This document shows positions 3,846-62,294 of a stretch of DNA of 64,000 nucleotides, piece by piece. Origin of the DNA: Bacteroidota bacterium (GTDB lineage Bacteria > Bacteroidota > Bacteroidia > Bacteroidales > WCHB1-69). Below the pieces are notes generated by a model. That model was not told the DNA's origin, did not search any database, and was given only the letters and a program-made list of their open reading frames with translations. The DNA is taken from positions 3,375-67,374 of the forward strand of contig JAEWNB010000069.1 in assembly GCA_023392945.1 (NCBI GenBank). Reading direction: 5' to 3'. The stretch's first letter is position 1. Each line of letters opens with the position of its first letter. The position numbers and the translations under genes are program-made.

Positions 3846-6665
3846 TTATTTCTTCATTGCTTCAGGATACAATGTTAATCTTACAAATTGGTCAGGAGTA
3901 AAATAGGCATTCATAAATTTAACAATATCCTCATTGGTCACGGCATTGACACGTTTTTCATAGGAATTAATTGCATTAACATCATCACCGTAATAATAAT
4001 TTCCAATAATATAACTGTTCCAGAATTTATTAGTTTTAACATCAGTTTGATTAGTAGTTATAAGTTGTTTTTTAACTTTATCAAGAGTTTCTGGTTTCGG
4101 ACCGGTTTTTTGAAAGCCTTTTAGAATATCGGTAACAGCATTGGCCAAATTGTCTGTATTATCCGGAGCACAGCTAAACATAACCAAAGTAGTATAGGTA
4201 GATCTTGGATATTTTTCACTTACCATTTGGAGCATCGGGGAATAAACACCACTCATTTTTTCACGAATAGTTTCAATTAATTCTATTTGCAAAGCTTCCT
4301 CTATTTGATCAACAATCATATTATTTTCCAATGTCCATGGATATTCTTTATTGAAACCCAACCCCACCCAACTTTGTTCTGCTGCACCAAAATAGAGTGA
4401 ATTATTTATCAAAGAAGCGGGAAATTCTTTTAAAATATCTCCTTTAAAATTCTCTCTTTCAATAGAAGTTGGAAGAGAAGCAATATAGGTTTCGATAAGA
4501 TAATTCAAAGTATCTTCAGAAAAATTACCCACAAAGCTGAAAAGAAAATCGGCAGGATTTGCAAAACGCTGTTTATAAATTTGAAAAGCTTTATCATAAT
4601 TGGCAGAAGATACGAAATCTTCAGTATAGTTTAAAAGATTAGCCTGATAAGGATCGTTCTGGGAAAGGAGCCCGAGAAATTCTCCAAAAAATTTATACAT
4701 AGGGTTTACCTTCAGCATCTTAACTTGTTCAATATTTTCATCAATAACAATTTTATAGACACTGGTATCATATCTTGGATTTGTAAAAAAAGCATTCAGA
4801 TATTGAAAGAAAAGATCGAGGTCTTTGGGAGTAGAAGATCCAGAAAGGCCTTCCTCAATAGTACTAATATAAGGTGTCAGTCCAAGTTTTTTCCCTTTTA
4901 ATTTTTTTTCCAGAGAAGAATAGTTTAATTCTCCTATTCCGGCACGGTCAACCATCTGTGATGCAAAATTGACTGAAGCCAAATCCGAAACTTCATAAAG
5001 GCTCATTCCACCCTTGCTTTGAGCTGAAAACAATATTTCATCATTTTTAAAATCTGTTTTCTTTACATAAACCTTAATTCCATTTGACAAAGTAAGTTCT
5101 TTTGTCCCAATTTCAGGGATTTCTTTTACATCGACAATTTTGCCCGGGGTCAAATTATTTTTTTCAACAATATTTTGTTCTTTATAAGTATCTACATAAG
5201 GAGTAACATCTTGTAAAGAAGGATCTTTGATAATAGACAAAACCTCTGCTTCTGTTGGCACAACAACGCCTTCTTTTTCAGGAGCAAGAACTACGGCAAC
5301 AAAGTTATCCTGAGTTATCCAATTTTTTGCCAAATCATTAACCTCACCCAAAGTAATTTGTTCCAGATATTTATTTGCAAAACCCAATTCTCTTTTAGCT
5401 CCGGGAATTGGATCTTGGTGAAGGAAATTGGCAACATATTCAGCAGCAAAATCTTCAGATTCAGTTTTGTCAATTTCTTTCACAGCAATGTCATATTGAT
5501 TCAGCAACTCTTCTTTTGCTCTTTTCAACTCGCTTTCTAAAAATCCAAATTTAAGTACGCGATAATTTTCTCTCATTAGGGTTCTGATGGCATCAGCAAT
5601 TTTATTCTCTTTTGAAGAAGCCTGAGACATATAACAATCAACAGATCCTATTAATTCACTATATCCGCAATAAGCTCCCACAAAAGGAGCTTTACTATCT
5701 TGAAGGATTTCACTTAATCTTGAGTCAATCATTAAATTAAATAATCTGTGTGCCATGTGAGTTTTGAAATCTCCGATAGTTTTCATTCTAAAGTGAGGGA
5801 ATTTTCTTACTAACATAACCTGACTTCCCATAGCTTCCTTATCAGTACACACAGCAACAAGAGGTTCTTTGTTCCCTTCAATTGGGAATTCTATTTTTTC
5901 ACGACCATTTTTAACCGATTTTATTTTACCGAATGTATTGATGATTTGTTGTTCCATTGCAGCAGGATCAAGATCTCCAACAACAACTATTGCCTGTAAA
6001 TCAGTCCTGTACCAATCTTTATAAAAATCTTTAATGGTTTGGTATTTAAAATTTTGAAGAATTTCCAGTTTTCCTATTGGCAAACGGTTTGCATATCTGG
6101 AATTAGTAAATAAAACAGGAAACCATTTTTTCTGCATTCGGTCGCTGGCACCAAGTCCCATACGATATTCTTCAACAATAATTCCTCTTTCTTTATCAAT
6201 TTCCTCATTATCATATAGTAAACCATTAGCCCAACCATAAAGAATATTCAAACCCATTTGCACATATTTAGGGTCTTCGGCTGGCATTTTAATCATATAT
6301 ACAGTTTCATCAAATGAAGTATAAGCATTTAAATCAACTCCGAAAGCAACCCCTATTTTCTGTAATTCGCTAACCAATTCATTACCCGGAAATCCTTTAA
6401 TTCCATTAAATGCCATGTGTTCAGTAAAATGAGCCAACCCCTGTTGATCATCATTTTCCTGATTGGAGCCGGCATTGACTGCTAAGCGAAATTCAATCCT
6501 TTTTTCCGGTTTTTTATTTGCCCGGATGTAATAAGTGATTCCGTTTTCAAGTTTCCCAATTTTCACATTGGGATCCTTATTTATCGGAGAATCTAAAGTT
6601 TGGGCACTTAATACCATAAAAGAAGTAATTAAAATGACCCATAATAAAGAAATTAATTTTTTCAT
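3846..6665 (-). CDS. Secreted M16-family (pitrilysin/insulinase) zinc peptidase, two-domain type
   Basis: 939 aa with a signal peptide (MKKLISLLWVILITSFMVLSAQT) and the inverted zinc motif HxxEH in GLAHFTEHMAFNG. The length fits a fused active plus inactive M16 pair. Confidence 0.9.
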   Translation of the reverse strand: MKKLISLLWVILITSFMVLSAQTLDSPINKDPNVKIGKLENGITYYIRANKKPEKRIEFRLAVNAGSNQENDDQQGLAHFTEHMAFNGIKGFPGNELVSELQKIGVAFGVDLNAYTSFDETVYMIKMPAEDPKYVQMGLNILYGWANGLLYDNEEIDKERGIIVEEYRMGLGASDRMQKKWFPVLFTNSRYANRLPIGKLEILQNFKYQTIKDFYKDWYRTDLQAIVVVGDLDPAAMEQQIINTFGKIKSVKNGREKIEFPIEGNKEPLVAVCTDKEAMGSQVMLVRKFPHFRMKTIGDFKTHMAHRLFNLMIDSRLSEILQDSKAPFVGAYCGYSELIGSVDCYMSQASSKENKIADAIRTLMRENYRVLKFGFLESELKRAKEELLNQYDIAVKEIDKTESEDFAAEYVANFLHQDPIPGAKRELGFANKYLEQITLGEVNDLAKNWITQDNFVAVVLAPEKEGVVVPTEAEVLSIIKDPSLQDVTPYVDTYKEQNIVEKNNLTPGKIVDVKEIPEIGTKELTLSNGIKVYVKKTDFKNDEILFSAQSKGGMSLYEVSDLASVNFASQMVDRAGIGELNYSSLEKKLKGKKLGLTPYISTIEEGLSGSSTPKDLDLFFQYLNAFFTNPRYDTSVYKIVIDENIEQVKMLKVNPMYKFFGEFLGLLSQNDPYQANLLNYTEDFVSSANYDKAFQIYKQRFANPADFLFSFVGNFSEDTLNYLIETYIASLPTSIERENFKGDILKEFPASLINNSLYFGAAEQSWVGLGFNKEYPWTLENNMIVDQIEEALQIELIETIREKMSGVYSPMLQMVSEKYPRSTYTTLVMFSCAPDNTDNLANAVTDILKGFQKTGPKPETLDKVKKQLITTNQTDVKTNKFWNSYIIGNYYYGDDVNAINSYEKRVNAVTNEDIVKFMNAYFTPDQFVRLTLYPEAMKK

Positions 6666-13356: not shown

Positions 13357-13364
13357 TATTTTTG
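13357..13364 (+). promoter_or_regulatory. -7 box driving the cobalamin riboswitch transcript
   Basis: TATTTTTG lies about 10 nt upstream of the first riboswitch nucleotides. Confidence 0.5.
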
Positions 13365-13373
13365 CCCCTGATT

Positions 13374-13545
13374 ACTTGGTGATGAATTCTCTTTGAGGAT
13401 TCATAAAAGGGAACCGGGTGAAAATCCCGGACAGTACCCGCTGCTGTAAGTTTCAATACGTTCTTTAGGCTTCCAATTGTCACTGTTGAATCAATCGATG
13501 GGAAGACGCTTAAAGAGAAACAAGTCAGAAAACCTGCCACTTAAT
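13374..13545 (+). promoter_or_regulatory. Cobalamin (B12) riboswitch
   Basis: The conserved core is read directly: AAAAGGGAACCGGGTGAAAATCCCGGACAGTACCCGCTGCTGTAAG, then GTCACTG...GGGAAGAC, then the B12 box AGTCAGAAAACCTGCCAC. It sits about 125 nt upstream of the ATG at 13671 on the same strand. Confidence 0.85.
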
Positions 13546-13670
13546 CTTGTAAAAAAGCTTTCGGGAGAAGAGCTTGATACAGTTCGTAATAATTCCTGCC
13601 GTCTAATTATTCCGTTCTAATCAGATTTTTTTCCGAAACCGGAAAATGAAATGATAAAACGCGCATAATA

Positions 13671-35145: not shown

Positions 35146-35233
35146 GGAGAGATGGCCGAGTGGTCGAAGGCGCACGCCTGGAAAGTGTGTAAACGCCGAA
35201 AGCGTTTCAAGGGTTCGAATCCCTTTCTCTCCG
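35146..35233 (+). tRNA. tRNA-Ser (anticodon GGA)
   Basis: The cloverleaf was folded by hand. Acceptor GGAGAGA/TCTCTCC, D arm GCC-GAGTGGTCGAA-GGC, anticodon stem CACGC/GTGTG with loop CTGGAAA, long variable arm AACGC-CGAA-AGCGTT, T arm AAGGG-TTCGAAT-CCCTT, discriminator G. No CCA is encoded. Confidence 0.92.
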
Positions 35234-46179: not shown

Positions 46180-47463
46180 TTACAATCCAAATTCCGCTTT
46201 AATCCTATCCACATAATCTAATTTTTCCCAAGGGAAAAAAGTGATTTTCTTGAAAATTTTTACAACTCCGTTTTCTGTTCTGCTATATGTGTCCTTGTCG
46301 TTATACTTAACCTCCACTTCTTGCTCAAAAGTATCTCTTCCAAAATGGCCATAAGATGCAGTTGCTTCATAGATAGGATTTTTTAGTTCAAGTCGGTTTA
46401 TAATTGCAAACGGAGTCATATCAAAAATAGTATCCAGTTTCTTGGAAATTTCTCCATCTGTCATTTTAACTTTAGAAGTATTGAAAGTATTAATATAAAG
46501 ACCAACGGGTTTTGCAACTCCGATAGCATAAGCCACCTGAACAAGAGCTTCGTCGCAGAGGCCTGCAGCAACAATATTTTTTGCCATATGTCGTGCGGCA
46601 TAGGCAGCAGATCTGTCAACTTTGGAAGGATCTTTTCCTGAAAAGGCACCACCACCATGAGCAGCTTTTCCTCCATAAGTATCCACAATAATTTTACGTC
46701 CTGTCAATCCACTGTCGCCGTGAGGTCCCCCAACAACAAATTTTCCGGTCGGATTAACATGCAATTTATAATCGTCTTTAAAAAGTTTTTGAACAAATTC
46801 AGGACAATTAGCTTTCACACGAGGAATTAAAATAGTCTCTATATCTTTTTTAATTGTATAAAGCATTTTTTCTTCTTTATCAAAATCATCATGTTGTGTT
46901 GAAACCACAATGGCATCAATACGTTCAGGAATACCGTCATCAGAATACTGGAGTGTTACCTGTGATTTAGAATCCGGACGGAGATAAGTCATAACTTTTC
47001 CTTCGCGACGGATAGCCGCTAACTCTTGTAAAAAAATATGAGACAATTCTATAGAAATCGGCATAAAATTATCCATTTCCTTACATGCATAGCCAAACAT
47101 CATTCCCTGATCACCGGCTCCCTGTTCTTCCAATGATGAACGGTTAACACCCTGACTGATATCAGGAGATTGTTTATGAATGGCAGAAAGAACTCCGCAT
47201 GACTTATAGTCGAACTGATAGTCGCTATTAGTATACCCTATTTTTTTAATAACGCGCCTTGCAACATCATCAACGGAAACATAACCCTTAGTGGTTACCT
47301 CTCCGGCACATACTACCAATCCGGTAGTAACTAATGTTTCGCAAGCCACCTTGGATTCCGGATCCTGAGAAAGGAAGGAATCAAGCAAAGCGTCTGAAAT
47401 TTGGTCACAGATTTTGTCAGGATGACCTTCAGATACTGATTCAGAAGTGAATAGATAGCTCAT
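46180..47463 (-). CDS. metK: S-adenosylmethionine synthetase
   Basis: 427 aa with [33 protein letters not shown] and [22 protein letters not shown]. Confidence 0.97.
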
Positions 47464-47581
47464 AATAAATTGATTTAGTTATTATTAATTCATCATCGAA
47501 AAAAAGGAGGTGGAAATGTTTTAGCATTTTTTTTTTTGAGGTTGCAATCACTACAAATCTTTCCTCATTTTTTTCGTGCTG

Positions 47582-51947: not shown

Positions 51948-52268
51948 ATTAATAATTTTGGTTGTTTTTTGCCTACTCTTATTGATTTTCGGCTTCCTCA
52001 TCTTTTTTTTTAGAGATTTAGATTTCTCTTTTGTCATATCCTTTCCCCACTTTAGTCCTTGAAGCGGATTAATTCTACTCAAAAAAACGTAGGACCGGAT
52101 TCCATTTGTTTATAAACGAAAGAAATCTAACGTTTTTTTTTATTATTTTTAGTTTTTCAATTATATTATCGTAAATTCCAACTATTATTTACTATTAATA
52201 ATGCAAAAATAAAAATTATTTATATAGAATAATTTTTTTTTGAAAAAAATTATTCACAGCAAAATATT

Positions 52269-57698: not shown

Positions 57699-58562
57699 TT
57701 AAAGTCTCTTTATAACTTTATGAGATTTAAATTTATTGTCCTTTTCAATAACTTTTAATCTCTTTTTCGTTTCCTCAGAAAAAAAAGAATCGGCAAACAT
57801 TTCTTCCATATATTCTATGGCATTGTCTCCCGGATGACAAAGATCCGAAGCATAAAAGCGATAATCCCGCAAATCATCCTGTATTATTTCATAAGAGGGA
57901 AAGTAGAATACTGTTTTATTGTCTACCATTTTATCAACTGCCAAATGCAAGATTGATTTGCTTAAGGTATTCTCATGAAAACCATCTCCCAAATGGCGCA
58001 CGGGACTGACAGTAAATAGTACTTTCATTTCAGGATTATGATCTATTATCCATTCAAACAAAAAATCAAAAGAAGTCACTATTTCTTCAGTATCAAGACG
58101 GATTTTTTCAAATTCACGTGCTGGAATCTTATGACAATTTGAAACAATAATATTATTTTTTTTGTGCAAATAAGCATAACTTGTTCCAAAAGTAATAAAA
58201 AGGAAATTGGTGTTTTTGAGAAAGAGGTTTGTGTTTTTAAGTTGATTTTCAATGTTTTCTAAAAAAAGCAATTTATCAGGATTGGAAAATTTTCCGTGAT
58301 GAGCAAAACTTATCCAATTTTCATCATAAAAAGAGTAAAAAGTATCATTAAATAAATCAGGATTGATTGCCATTTTAAGAGCATTGACAATAGATGCAGG
58401 ATTAAACAAAATGCCAAAAGGATTTGATAAAACAGGAAACCCGTTATTTTTCAAATAATTGCCAATATGGTCTGAAAAACAAGAACCCATGAAAATAGAT
58501 TTGCTTTCATATCCTACCAGAAAAGGATATTCAGGTCTTGGGATTTCCGTTCTGAATTTCAT
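57699..58562 (-). CDS. GSCFA-family protein (SGNH-hydrolase-like, function unknown)
   Basis: 287 aa with the N-terminal motif IFMGSCFSDHIG, the GSCFA signature. A 4-nt ATGA overlap joins it to the upstream helicase gene. Confidence 0.75.
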   Translation of the reverse strand: MKFRTEIPRPEYPFLVGYESKSIFMGSCFSDHIGNYLKNNGFPVLSNPFGILFNPASIVNALKMAINPDLFNDTFYSFYDENWISFAHHGKFSNPDKLLFLENIENQLKNTNLFLKNTNFLFITFGTSYAYLHKKNNIIVSNCHKIPAREFEKIRLDTEEIVTSFDFLFEWIIDHNPEMKVLFTVSPVRHLGDGFHENTLSKSILHLAVDKMVDNKTVFYFPSYEIIQDDLRDYRFYASDLCHPGDNAIEYMEEMFADSFFSEETKKRLKVIEKDNKFKSHKVIKRL

Positions 58563-60883
58563 TCTTTGGGTAAAATTAATTTTGCAAATTTAAGCAGCAA
58601 CGTTTTTTCTCCAACGGTATCAAATTTTATCACAGCTTTTTTATCCTGACCGGATCCTTCAGTACTTAATACATTGCCATATCCAAATTTAGCATGATAA
58701 ATTCTTAAAGAGGGAAAGATATCTTCTATCATGGCATCTTTTCCAAATGAGCTCGGAGCCTCCACAATCTTACTTTTTATAACCCGATTTGAATCCGTCA
58801 ACTTATTGATTGGAGTAAGGTTGTTTCTGTGGAAATTAAAATCCGAAGTTTGTCTTTCAAAGAATTCTTTTCCTGACGAAGCTTTGTGAGTTTGATTAAT
58901 AAATTGAACCGGAATTTCATCAATAAAGCGACTGTGTTCACAAAACTGAGGAGATCCATACTTATAGCGCATTTTGGAATGAGTAAGAGTTAATTGCTTC
59001 TTTGCACGGGTAATGGCAACATAAAAAAGACGACGTTCTTCTTCCAGTTCAGAGCGAGTTCCTAAAGAAAGGGATGAGGGAAAGAGATTTTCCTCCATTC
59101 CGGTAACAAAAACATAGTCAAATTCCAATCCTTTGGCAGAGTGAATTGTCATTAATTTCACTTTATCCTGATTTATATCCCCACTGTTATCAACATCAGT
59201 CAATAAAGCAATACTATCAATAAATCTATCTAATGAGGGAAAATAATCCTGAATTAATTCTCCTGTTTCTTCATTGAATTCACTTTCTGGTTCTCTTTCA
59301 GAAAACTCTTTCATTGAATCAAGAAGCCCTTCTACATTTTCTACTCTTTCCTTTTCTGTGATATCATCTTTTAAATCCTGCATTAAACCTGAGGTATAAG
59401 CAATATGCTTTCCCATCTCATAAGCATCTGTAGTAGTAATCATGGCTGAATAACCCTTGATACGCAGGGCAAAATCCTTAAGTTTTGCCTTAGTTGGCAC
59501 ATTAACATCCAAATTGTATTGGTCCGGATTTTCAATAATATTCCATATTCTTTGGTTGCTCTCGTTTGCCGTTACCAGAAGCTTGTCAATAGTGGTTGCG
59601 CCAATTCCACGTTGAGGGTAATTGATAATTCTAAGAAGTGATTCTTCATCATAGTGATTGATCGCTAAACGAAAATAGGCCAGGATGTTTTTTATCTCTT
59701 TTCTTTTATAAAAAGAGAGCCCTCCGTATATAACATAGGGAATATGTCGTTTTATCAAAGCTTCTTCCAATGCCCGCGACTGCGAATTTGTACGGTATAG
59801 AATTGCAAAATCGCTATTTTTGAGTTGATATGTAAATTTAAGTTCAAAAATAGTGCCCGCTACAAACTGAGCTTCATCTGAGTCGCTGTTTGATTGCACA
59901 ATTTTAATCTTATCACCTTCCCCATTTCCTGTCCATATTTCCTTATAAAGCTGATCTTTATTATTTTTGATGATGGCATTTGCGGCATTGACAATATTTT
60001 GAGTAGAACGATAATTTTGTTCAAGCTTTACGACTACCGCTTCAGGATAGTCTTTTTTAAAGCTCAGAATATTCTGGATGTTTGCACCGCGAAAGCCATA
60101 AATACTTTGGGCATCATCTCCCACAACACAAATATTATGATGTGCTGCAGCCAGCTTTTTGATGATGATATACTGAGCAAAATTTGTATCCTGATATTCA
60201 TCCACTAAAATATACTGAAAACGATTTTGGTATTTATAGAGCATCTCAGGAAAATCTCTGAGCAAAACATTCATGTAATAAAGCAAATCGTCAAAATCCA
60301 TCGCACTTGATTTCTTCAGTCGATTATCATAACGAATAAAAATATCCCCAATAAGTGGGCGCCCGCATCTCACATCAGCCTCGATAATTTCATGACTGCT
60401 TGCATATTCCTGAGCAGAAAGCAGATTGGATTTTGCAGCAGAAATCCTACTCAAAATAATATTTGCCATGTAAAGTTTAGGGTCAAGATTCAGTTCTTTA
60501 ACAATAGATTTAATCACCCCTTTTGAATCATCTGTATCATAAACGGTTAGATTTTTGGTATAACCAATTTTTTCACATTCCACTCTCAAAATCCTATAAA
60601 ATACAGAGTGAAATGTTCCCATAGTGACAGATTTTGCCTGAGCATCTCCCACAAGATTAAAAATTCGTTCCTTCATTTCATTTGCAGCCTTATTTGTAAA
60701 AGTAAGGGCCAATATTCGATAGGGGTTGATACCTTGAGTCAGCATGTGAGCAATTCTATAGGTAAGCACTCTGGTTTTTCCTGATCCGGCACCTGCAATC
60801 ACCATTAAAGGACCATCTATAATTTTAACAGCCTCTTGCTGAGAATCATTTAAGTGAGTTAAAAAAAAATTCGGGGAGTTCAT
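58559..60883 (-). CDS. uvrD: UvrD/PcrA/Rep-family ATP-dependent DNA helicase
   Basis: 774 aa with LNDSQQEAV, the Walker A motif AGAGSGKTRVLTYR, VDEYQDTNFAQY, LEQNYRST, TIHSAKGLEF and YVAITRAK. Confidence 0.93.
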   Translation of the reverse strand: MNSPNFFLTHLNDSQQEAVKIIDGPLMVIAGAGSGKTRVLTYRIAHMLTQGINPYRILALTFTNKAANEMKERIFNLVGDAQAKSVTMGTFHSVFYRILRVECEKIGYTKNLTVYDTDDSKGVIKSIVKELNLDPKLYMANIILSRISAAKSNLLSAQEYASSHEIIEADVRCGRPLIGDIFIRYDNRLKKSSAMDFDDLLYYMNVLLRDFPEMLYKYQNRFQYILVDEYQDTNFAQYIIIKKLAAAHHNICVVGDDAQSIYGFRGANIQNILSFKKDYPEAVVVKLEQNYRSTQNIVNAANAIIKNNKDQLYKEIWTGNGEGDKIKIVQSNSDSDEAQFVAGTIFELKFTYQLKNSDFAILYRTNSQSRALEEALIKRHIPYVIYGGLSFYKRKEIKNILAYFRLAINHYDEESLLRIINYPQRGIGATTIDKLLVTANESNQRIWNIIENPDQYNLDVNVPTKAKLKDFALRIKGYSAMITTTDAYEMGKHIAYTSGLMQDLKDDITEKERVENVEGLLDSMKEFSEREPESEFNEETGELIQDYFPSLDRFIDSIALLTDVDNSGDINQDKVKLMTIHSAKGLEFDYVFVTGMEENLFPSSLSLGTRSELEEERRLFYVAITRAKKQLTLTHSKMRYKYGSPQFCEHSRFIDEIPVQFINQTHKASSGKEFFERQTSDFNFHRNNLTPINKLTDSNRVIKSKIVEAPSSFGKDAMIEDIFPSLRIYHAKFGYGNVLSTEGSGQDKKAVIKFDTVGEKTLLLKFAKLILPKE

Positions 60884-60902
60884 ATAACGTTATTTAACGA
60901 AG

Positions 60903-60910
60903 CAAAAATA
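60903..60910 (-). promoter_or_regulatory. -7 box for the helicase-GSCFA operon
   Basis: The minus strand reads TATTTTTG, 19 nt upstream of the ATG at 60883. Confidence 0.4.
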
Positions 60911-61063
60911 GTCAAAAAAATCATTGATGACATTCTTGAAAAAAAGTTAATTATTTAATGATTTCTATTTACAATTGGCAAAATAAGTAAATTAATTTTA
61001 TTGTTGTTAACAGATTGTTGATAACTTTTTTATAAACAATATAAAAATTAACTATTAAATTAT

Positions 61064-61071
61064 TATTTTTG
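61064..61071 (+). promoter_or_regulatory. Orphan plus-strand -7 box pointing into the structured intergenic element
   Basis: TATTTTTG sits on the plus strand with no plus-strand ORF downstream. The long stem begins about 19 nt later. Confidence 0.35.
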
Positions 61072-61089
61072 TTGCGGCATATTTGTTCA

Positions 61090-61185
61090 ATATACACAGT
61101 AACCGGAACTATCCCACCTCAACACGTACAAATCTATCCCACCTCATTTTGGCAATTACTCGTTTCCATCCGGTTACTGGTATAT
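61090..61185. repeat. Long inverted repeat (17 bp, one bulged A) enclosing two 13-nt direct repeats; candidate small RNA or protein-binding element
   Basis: The arms are ATATACACAGTAACCGGA (61090-61107) and TCCGGTTACTGGTATAT (61169-61185). Inside, CTATCCCACCTCA occurs twice (61109-61121 and 61134-61146), 25 nt apart. Confidence 0.85.
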
Positions 61186-61196
61186 ATTTAAATAAA

Positions 61197-62294
61197 TCAT
61201 AATCTATAGATTTTCCCGGGTTTGCATTCCACCACTCCTTTTAATTCGAGTCCCAATAAGAGTCCGGCAACTTTGGAGGGAGTTAATTCATTACAACATT
61301 GAATAATTTCATCAACAGAAATATCTTGATGCATTTTAATGATTTTTACAATTTTTTCTTCGTTTTCATCCAGTTCAACAAAAAGCTCTCGTTGGACTGC
61401 TTTGGGAGGAGAAGAATTCCATCCCATCATTTCAATCAAATGTTCTCCCGAATTGAGCAGACAGGCAATATTGGAGCGAATCAACTCATGACATCCATCC
61501 TGAAGAGGGTTAAAGATTGAACCCGGAACAGCAAATACGTCTCTGTTATAAGAATGGGCCAGATAAGCCGTAATGACACTACCCCCTTTTTTGGCCGTTT
61601 CCACAACAATAGTAGCATCTGCCATTCCGGCAATAATACGATTTCTTTTAGGAAAATTAATCTTGTCGGGAATCATATCATGCGGAAATTCAGAAATAAT
61701 AGTTCCGCCATATTCAATAATGCGATTTGCCAGTTTGATATTTGAAGGTGGATATATAACCCCGAGTCCGGAGCCAAGAACTGCCACTGTATTCAAGCCG
61801 AAAGAGAGTGATTGTTCATGGGCCATAGTATCAATACCCATTGCCAGTCCACTTACCACAGAAATATCATATCCTGCTATTTCAGAAATTATTTTTTTCA
61901 CAATATCACACCCATAATCAGAGGCACTCCGTGTTCCAACCACCGCCACAACTTTTGATCTATTAAAAAACCCATCTCCTTTATAATAAAACATATATGG
62001 AAAATCATTACAATTTTTGAGTCTTTTGGGATAATTTTCATCCGTAAAAAAACAAAGATTAACCCCATGTTTCTCTATCCATTTATATTCTTTCTCTGCA
62101 AGAGAATAAATTTTATCGGTAAGAACAGGTTTAAGTAGGGTTTTTCCTAAAATGTTTTTTCTAAAAAAAGAATTAGGGGAAGTTGCAAAAAGTGATTGTG
62201 CACTGCCACAATGTTGGATCAATTTCTTTATTACTTTATTCCCTAAAGTATCTTGATATTGCAGCGCAATTCTGTAGAAGGTTTCGTCGAGCAT
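61197..62294 (-). CDS. dprA: DNA-processing protein DprA (Smf)
   Basis: The start is moved to the ATG at 62294 (MLDETFYRIALQY...). It has VAVVGTRSASDYG and GLAMGIDTMAHE, with a C-terminal winged-helix-like tail. Confidence 0.9.
   Translation of the reverse strand: MLDETFYRIALQYQDTLGNKVIKKLIQHCGSAQSLFATSPNSFFRKNILGKTLLKPVLTDKIYSLAEKEYKWIEKHGVNLCFFTDENYPKRLKNCNDFPYMFYYKGDGFFNRSKVVAVVGTRSASDYGCDIVKKIISEIAGYDISVVSGLAMGIDTMAHEQSLSFGLNTVAVLGSGLGVIYPPSNIKLANRIIEYGGTIISEFPHDMIPDKINFPKRNRIIAGMADATIVVETAKKGGSVITAYLAHSYNRDVFAVPGSIFNPLQDGCHELIRSNIACLLNSGEHLIEMMGWNSSPPKAVQRELFVELDENEEKIVKIIKMHQDISVDEIIQCCNELTPSKVAGLLLGLELKGVVECKPGKIYRL

Follow-up and report, generated by a model that had tools for sequence, protein, structure and literature searches.

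The dprA gene, a DNA-processing gene of natural transformation, and a gene encoding a UvrD/PcrA helicase lie next to each other on the minus strand of the window, i.e., the whole 64-kb stretch of DNA that was analysed. The spacer that separates them carries a hairpin with a very large loop, which is referred to below as the element. The features of this locus are the following:

60884-61196: dprA-uvrD spacer, 313 bp, flanked by two minus-strand genes
61197-62294 (-): dprA, 365 aa, with the Pfam domains PF02481 and PF17782, convergent with the predicted sRNA
58559-60883 (-): uvrD, the UvrD/PcrA helicase gene
61064-61071 (+): -7 promoter box TATTTTTG, read in the sequence and corresponding to the sigma-ABfr consensus TAnnTTTG
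61076-61196 (+): candidate sRNA transcript of about 115-120 nt, with both ends predicted
61090-61107 (+): 5' arm of the closing stem, whose conserved inner 10 nt are 61098-61107, AGUAACCGGA
61169-61186 (+): 3' arm of the closing stem, whose conserved inner 10 nt are 61169-61178, UCCGGUUACU
61109-61121 (+): C-rich box A, CUAUCCCACCUCA
61134-61146 (+): C-rich box B, CUAUCCCACCUCA, identical to box A
61147-61168 (+): most conserved single-stranded block, UUUUGGCAAUUACUCGUUUCCA, containing UUUGGCAAUU at 61148-61157
61187-61196 (+): A/U-rich tail past the stem, reaching the dprA stop codon
60903-60910 (-): -7 box TATTTTTG of the uvrD promoter, outside the element

The start of the candidate transcript was placed about 5-8 nt past the -7 box and its end at the A/U-rich tract that follows the stem. 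As for dprA, its mechanical ORF extends to 62351, and the DprA homologues have a length of 365-366 aa.

The hairpin, the -7 box and the two repeats had been proposed from the letters of the window alone (hereafter the sequence-only reading), and each of them was verified at these positions on the + strand. The same reading gave the spacer as 313 bp long, which is correct, and as free of ORFs, which is not, since the ORF list gives one ORF of 42 aa (-) and one of 40 aa (+), neither of them conserved. The two CTATCCCACCTCA copies, at 61109-61121 and 61134-61146, are perfect and spaced by 25 nt from start to start, and this exact repeat has no further occurrence in the 64-kb window. The stem is made of an 11-nt core (61097-61107 / 61169-61179), which is 100% complementary and whose arms are separated by 61 nt, and of an outer extension, to 61086/61191, which is 83% complementary. 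The 17-bp stem initially described is present, but only its inner 10-11 bp are conserved, the outer part already differing in L004, a relative whose DprA is 99% identical to that of the window. Relative to dinucleotide shuffles, the + strand fold (-23.7 kcal/mol) has a z-score of -4.67 and the - strand fold (-31.2 kcal/mol) a z-score of -3.62. The G+C content of the element is 46% versus 34.5% for the window.

Relatives were sought by searching for DprA homologues and then inspecting their contigs for the element. It was found in nine distinct sequences belonging to about six lineages, with DprA identities to the window going down to 60%: L004 (99%), L001 (97%), L005 and L101 (83% each), L133 (about 77%), L006 (72%), L134 (65%), and L007 and L027, which belong to the same species (60%). 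In a collection with one genome per species, the DprA query gave only L001 as a close relative, which comes from the MAG "Bacteroidetes bacterium WAS_Bin_9" (97% DprA identity). The host lineage is one of poorly sampled uncultured Bacteroidales, represented here by MAGs and metagenome assemblies only. A pattern scan of metagenomes (TGGAAA..AATTGCCAAA..GGGATA), which turned out to be too loose, gave L027 and L101 as genuine carriers among the 120 stretches listed, the others being chance matches, mostly to one gut Bacteroides coding sequence. L008/9, L010-12, L135/6 and L137, four further lineages whose DprA is about 60% identical, do not carry the element.

In every carrier, the element begins 10-25 nt past the dprA stop codon. 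In L007, the gene downstream is not uvrD but a convergent gene encoding a LytTR response regulator, and both the element and its promoter box are retained; this conservation without uvrD indicates that the element belongs to the dprA end of the spacer. In L133, dprA is split at 827-920 into overlapping ORFs of 270 aa and 95 aa, with a long perfect hairpin matching miRNA models where the two ORFs meet; the split probably reflects either a misassembly or a disruption of the gene, and the element downstream is intact.

Purifying selection acts on the hairpin as well as on the motifs of its loop, and this conservation among relatives is the strongest evidence that the element exceeds chance. Between the window and L005, the element is 89% identical, the four-fold sites of dprA 46% and the remainder of the spacer 70%; between the window and L006, the corresponding values are 79%, 37% and 51%. 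The sequence-only reading had stated that it should be given up if there were no transcript beyond dprA read-through and relatives displayed neither conservation nor covariation; the element proves to be conserved among them, with some compensatory change.

The same reading had also considered a known multi-copy or MITE-like repeat as fatal to its proposal. Indeed, the element has some traits of a MITE- or REP-like mobile or repetitive element that would have landed downstream of dprA, with its terminal inverted repeats of 11-17 bp and its short non-coding core richer in G+C within an A+T-rich spacer. However, a search with filters off, using a covariance model (R1) built from the homologues, scores the element at 102 bits and the next match in the window at 16 bits, and there is likewise one copy per related locus. 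Its genomic position past dprA does not change even in lineages whose DprA is only 60% identical, which indicates vertical inheritance rather than insertion. Furthermore, no target-site duplication or duplicated flank is seen, and the stem 8-mer GTAACCGG is not over-represented. Searches of plasmids and phages by blastn, as well as two pattern scans of viral contigs, gave no true match to the element. A single-copy element is thus observed in the window and in the related loci, and a mobile or repetitive origin is scarcely credible. A DNA-uptake sequence was also considered and rejected, the motifs not being over-represented.

The element does not encode a protein. Its core measures 79, 82 or 77 nt in relatives, the indels are not multiples of three, and no peptide is common to the carriers, which shows that it is non-coding. 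The small protein-coding gene that was envisaged was discarded because the conserved blocks lie in different frames (FWQLL versus FGNYS), so that no peptide is shared.

Alignments A2 and A3 delimit a conserved 10-bp stem, GGUAACCGGA/UCCGGUUACC, rich in G+C and lengthened by A/U pairs that are particular to each lineage. Eight of the 10 inner pairs are invariant. The two others vary: the pair 61098-61178 is GC in four sequences, AU in three and GU in two, and the pair 61107-61169 is AU in seven, UG in one and CU in one. The first of these two pairs shows a full exchange from A-U to G-C. In alignment A3, two of the 10 pairs are changed on both sides and 96.3% of the cells are paired; the covariation score of 0.154, versus 0.074 in shuffles, is attained by 10 of 500 shuffles, with only eight distinct sequences contributing. 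In L001, one stem arm carries CC in place of AA at 5176-5177, so that two central pairs are lost; the outer stem of L001, on the other hand, pairs perfectly thanks to an inserted A and to the replacement of C-G by A-T, and the fold energy is unchanged (-21.8 versus -22.2 kcal/mol).

The loop is pyrimidine-rich and about 61-65 nt long. It bears two AUCCCAC-type boxes, whose core UCCCAC is kept in most relatives, and then the conserved block UUUUGGCAAUUACUCGUUUCC, within which UUUGGCAAUU does not vary among the nine sequences. The sequence-only reading had pointed to the two exposed C-rich motifs; across the carriers, the most conserved single-stranded block is UUUGGCAAUU and not the repeat, and this block is a candidate for the seed or for the site of protein binding. 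A change in one box is matched in the other, both being CCCACAU in L006 and both UAUAUCC in L007. This hints that both boxes read the same partner, although only two such events are available. Inside the loop, neither RNAalifold nor the single-sequence folds, which agree with it, give a conserved + strand structure.

Such a conservation pattern could also be expected if the element acted as DNA, being bound by a protein or recombined, for example as an operator, an iteron-like site or a short invertible segment. The 10-bp stem arms would then be inverted half-sites, accompanied by the direct repeats with their 25-bp spacing and by one more conserved block. The stem arms are indeed conserved in sequence beyond what pairing needs, as illustrated by their invariant pairs (8/10), and the direct repeats evolve in parallel in L006 and L007, as sites of the same protein would. 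Moreover, invertible regions flanked by inverted repeats are well known in Bacteroidales. However, the half-sites are about 61-65 bp apart with a variable spacing (cores of 77-82 nt), the internal orientation is identical in all nine homologues without any sign of inversion, no TAnnTTTG promoter box lies within the segment and no recombinase or regulator gene accompanies the element. In addition, the wobble-compatible intermediates of the stem point to RNA. A role as a DNA site thus seems improbable. Two specific DNA sites were also examined. The Bacteroidetes LexA motifs are GGA-N5-TCC and CTAA-N5-TTAG (PMC8565304), neither of which the element matches; the nearest approach to a LexA (SOS) box, the GGA-N4-TCC present in GGGATAGTTCC (- strand), is lost in L006 and L007. 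In the same way, a sigma-54 promoter (TGGAAA-N7-TTGCC) was rejected by reading, the spacing from GG to GC being 14-15 nt instead of 12, and variable.

If the element acts as RNA, the strand from which it is transcribed has to be determined. A TAnnTTTG box is located 12-29 nt upstream of the stem in nine of the 10 loci and is, in each spacer, the sole one on the + strand within 250 nt. This motif is the -7 consensus of the primary sigma factor of Bacteroidetes and is carried by 76% of the intergenic sRNAs of B. thetaiotaomicron (PMC7366714). The window group, the L005 group and L006 share the box TATTTTTG, whereas L134 has TATCTTTG and L007 has TATATTTG. In L006, L134 and L007, the flanks cannot be aligned with those of the window, yet the box is kept, with different variable bases and at different distances. 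Its placement would occur by chance in 1.8-3.6% of shuffles per lineage, and TAnnTTTG occurs in the window about once every 1.2 kb on each strand. On the - strand, the sole TAnnTTTG of the spacer is the box of the uvrD promoter, which is kept in every locus with uvrD and missing in L007. The locus without a box upstream of the stem is L027, which diverges completely from L007 12 nt past the stem, at a point where only 40 nt of the L027 contig remain; comparison of L027 1-40 with L007 4294-4330 indicates either that a rearrangement eliminated the antisense box or that the contig is chimeric at its end.

The variable stem pairs and the tails also bear on the strand. The A3 pairs 4-88 and 13-79 form G·U/U·G wobbles in the + orientation, whereas they are A×C/C×A mismatches in the dprA orientation, so that paired cells amount to 96.3% in the former versus 93.8% in the latter. 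Past the stem, the + strand carries U7 in L007, CUCUUUUU in L006 and a U-rich tail in L101, the tail of the window, AUUUAAAUAA, being a weak terminator. Because of the promoter box, the wobble pairs and these U-tails, the + strand appears favoured; this preference is drawn from two wobble positions and one promoter motif in a small sample.

The dprA strand has tails of its own. It carries CUUUUUAUGAU past the stem in L005, L101 and L133, and UGUUUUUAUAUUU in L004, whereas this strand lacks a U-run at that place in the window, L134 and L007. The sequence-only reading, which had the window only, had argued that the hairpin does not look like a terminator of dprA. This does not hold across the family: given the U-runs on the dprA strand in L004, L005, L101 and L133, the hairpin probably also terminates dprA. 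A single stem would then probably be the bidirectional terminator of two convergent units, while the functional sequence of the sRNA would lie in the loop. A scan with a simple terminator consensus gave nothing at the element, because the loop exceeds 8 nt.

These tails raise the question of whether the functional RNA is the dprA-sense (-) transcript itself, as a structured 3' UTR, a terminator or stability element, or a 3'-UTR-derived sRNA. Read in this sense, the element displays purine-rich GAGGUGGGAUAG-type motifs and four GGA triplets. It always lies 10-25 nt past the dprA stop and stays there when the downstream gene differs, the U-runs in four carriers are on the right strand, and the - strand fold is the more stable one (-31.2 kcal/mol, z = -3.62). 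RNAalifold also suggests an additional inner helix in this orientation, UUGCC/GGUGG, but the latter is made of three G·U and two G-C pairs, without covariation, and is broken in L134. Furthermore, transcription from dprA leaves the conserved antisense TAnnTTTG box unexplained, the two stem positions that wobble on the other strand are mismatched on this one, the U-run is missing in L007, L134 and the window, and a mere terminator needs no conserved loop sequence. That the dprA-sense RNA is the functional one is therefore considered unlikely, though less so than a DNA site.

The structured sRNA transcribed from the + strand, antisense to its neighbours, that the sequence-only reading had put forward remains the best-supported explanation, in view of the purifying selection, the conserved box and the + strand wobble pairs. 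With a probability of roughly 55%, the element would be a non-coding small RNA gene, carried by the + strand of the window, with its own promoter and convergent with dprA. Transcription would begin a few bases past the sigma-ABfr-type -7 box (61064-71) and give an RNA of about 115-120 nt. This RNA would be closed by the stem GGUAACCGGA/UCCGGUUACC, and its loop would expose both AUCCCAC(C) boxes together with the invariant UUUGGCAAUU. Flanked by A/U-rich sequence, the same stem would terminate the transcripts of the sRNA and of dprA, one from each direction. Since the hairpin would be shared by both transcripts, the sRNA would be fully complementary to the 3' end of dprA and could be coupled to the stability of the dprA mRNA. 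The loop motifs may pair with purine-rich sites of target mRNAs or bind a protein. Our best estimate is a base-pairing sRNA that would act via UUUGGCAAUU and the UCCCAC boxes.

Several observations weigh against a + strand sRNA. Most of the stem pairs never vary, and a DNA or protein recognition site would look alike. The comparison covers only nine sequences from about six lineages. The window tail AUUUAAAUAA is a poor terminator, L027 has no box and two pairs are broken in L001. Finally, the target search in the 64-kb window identified no target, its results being at the level of shuffles. In this search, the window contained 38 complementary 9-mers versus 42.5 in shuffles and 12 complementary 10-mers versus 10.5, and a duplex-energy scan of the same 64 kb did no better with the loop than with shuffled loops. 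The 10-mer AATTGCCAAA found upstream of dprA was rejected as a target, as it lies within the start of the coaX coding sequence and is not conserved.

The sequence-only reading had pointed to the metK leader as complementary to the repeats in the case of minus-strand transcription. The metK gene (46180-47463 (-)) has in its leader a SAM-II riboswitch (47511-47572 (-), 63.7 bits), preceded by a TATTTTTG box at 47588-47581, and the 5' part of this leader contains the 9-mers AAAAUGAGG and AGAUUUGUA, which are complementary to the + strand loop. This complementarity is at chance level, and the matching segment of the candidate sRNA is not conserved in relatives; it was judged fortuitous.

As regards known families, the comparison with Rfam that had been suggested was carried out, and no family matches the element. 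With Rfam 15, the window searched at the gathering threshold gives no match in the spacer, the region 60800-61300 searched at E<=10 gives two chance matches to eukaryotic snoRNA/miRNA models only, both outside the hairpin, and five homologous loci searched at E<=1 give nothing at the element. In the same way, the literature on Bacteroides reports no sRNA beside dprA. Judging from the sequences at hand, the element most likely represents a new family of sRNAs, which is confined to a small clade of Bacteroidales and has no Rfam match.

A resemblance of the C-rich motifs to the anti-Shine-Dalgarno sequence had also been noted. Such motifs do occur in some carriers, as CACCUC twice in the window, CCUCCUU in L133 and CUCCUUUCU in L134, this last 9-mer being identical to what we take to be the 3' end of Bacteroidetes 16S rRNA. 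The likeness is missing from both L006 boxes, which read CCCACAU, and from box B of L007, which is AUCCAAUCU. The carriers thus do not retain the resemblance: the core that persists is UCCCAC, and CCUCC is lost in L006 and L007. In addition, the window does not contain the 16S rRNA of this organism. The RNA could still be imagined as a mimic of the 3' tail of 16S rRNA, with a helix followed by an anti-SD-like pyrimidine-rich single strand, twice, but this is very improbable. If it were true, the RNA would titrate either mRNA sites of the rare SD-like type (GGAGG/GAGGUG) or bS21, bS18 and bS6, the proteins that lock the anti-SD, and would be a trans-acting regulator of the unusual translation initiation of the phylum. 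The ribosomes of Bacteroidia work without Shine-Dalgarno pairing, their anti-SD being sequestered (PMC7797042, PMC9976891).

The candidate sRNA can be compared with several known systems. The intergenic sRNAs of Bacteroides mostly have a canonical promoter and terminator, often with extended unfolded regions and conserved single-stranded seeds (PMC7366714). Like these canonical sRNAs, for example GibS of B. thetaiotaomicron (Ryan et al. 2020, PMC7366714), the candidate sRNA would have its own sigma-ABfr-type -7 box, a length in the range of about 100-150 nt, a 3' hairpin with U-rich flanks and unstructured regions with a conserved single-stranded stretch that could be a seed. However, it has no sequence or Rfam relationship to them, and its presumed seed is located in a very large terminal loop and not in a 5' single strand. 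The duplicated unpaired UCCC motifs presumably recall the UCCC loops of RsaE/RoxS and RNAIII from Firmicutes and could likewise pair with GGGA/GAGG sites; these RNAs are from another phylum and have no homology to the element. Furthermore, since Bacteroidia do without SD pairing, the target logic of the RsaE/RoxS type need not apply.

The element also resembles the bidirectional intrinsic terminators by its G+C-rich stem placed between convergent units, A-rich upstream and U-rich downstream, which could make it a terminator for either strand. The loops of terminators are normally of 3-8 nt and not conserved, whereas that of the element has 61-65 nt and is its most conserved part. As for the CsrB/RsmZ sponges, the dprA-sense strand carries, by reading, four GGA triplets in every lineage, but these are not in small hairpin loops and the strand evidence favours the other strand.

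To our knowledge, Bacteroidota have neither Hfq nor ProQ, and few of their sRNAs have been characterised, nearly all of them from cultured Bacteroides. If confirmed, the element would add, for uncultured Bacteroidales, a family of conserved sRNAs that Rfam does not contain, a useful yet incremental step that would bring no new principle. Its architecture is unusual, as a terminator stem would close a loop of about 60 nt bearing all the conserved motifs. Moreover, its fixed location at the 3' end of dprA offers a testable tie between an sRNA and a recombination gene.

Besides the element, the spacer contains another conserved block at 61000-61025 (+), about 110-130 nt upstream of uvrD. Read in the dprA sense, it is GTTATCAACAATCTGTTAACAACAAT, two 12-nt direct repeats, and in L134 (2030-2055) the same block is the near-perfect palindrome TTATCAACAATATGTTGATAA. 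It is found in all the loci that have uvrD downstream, is absent from L007 and matches neither of the Bacteroidetes LexA motifs. This block could be an operator controlling uvrD. Elsewhere in the window, Rfam identifies an 88-nt tRNA at 35146-35233 (+), a DUF805b RNA motif at 51970-52002 (-) (39.2 bits) and a cobalamin riboswitch at 13360-13555 (+) (94.5 bits).
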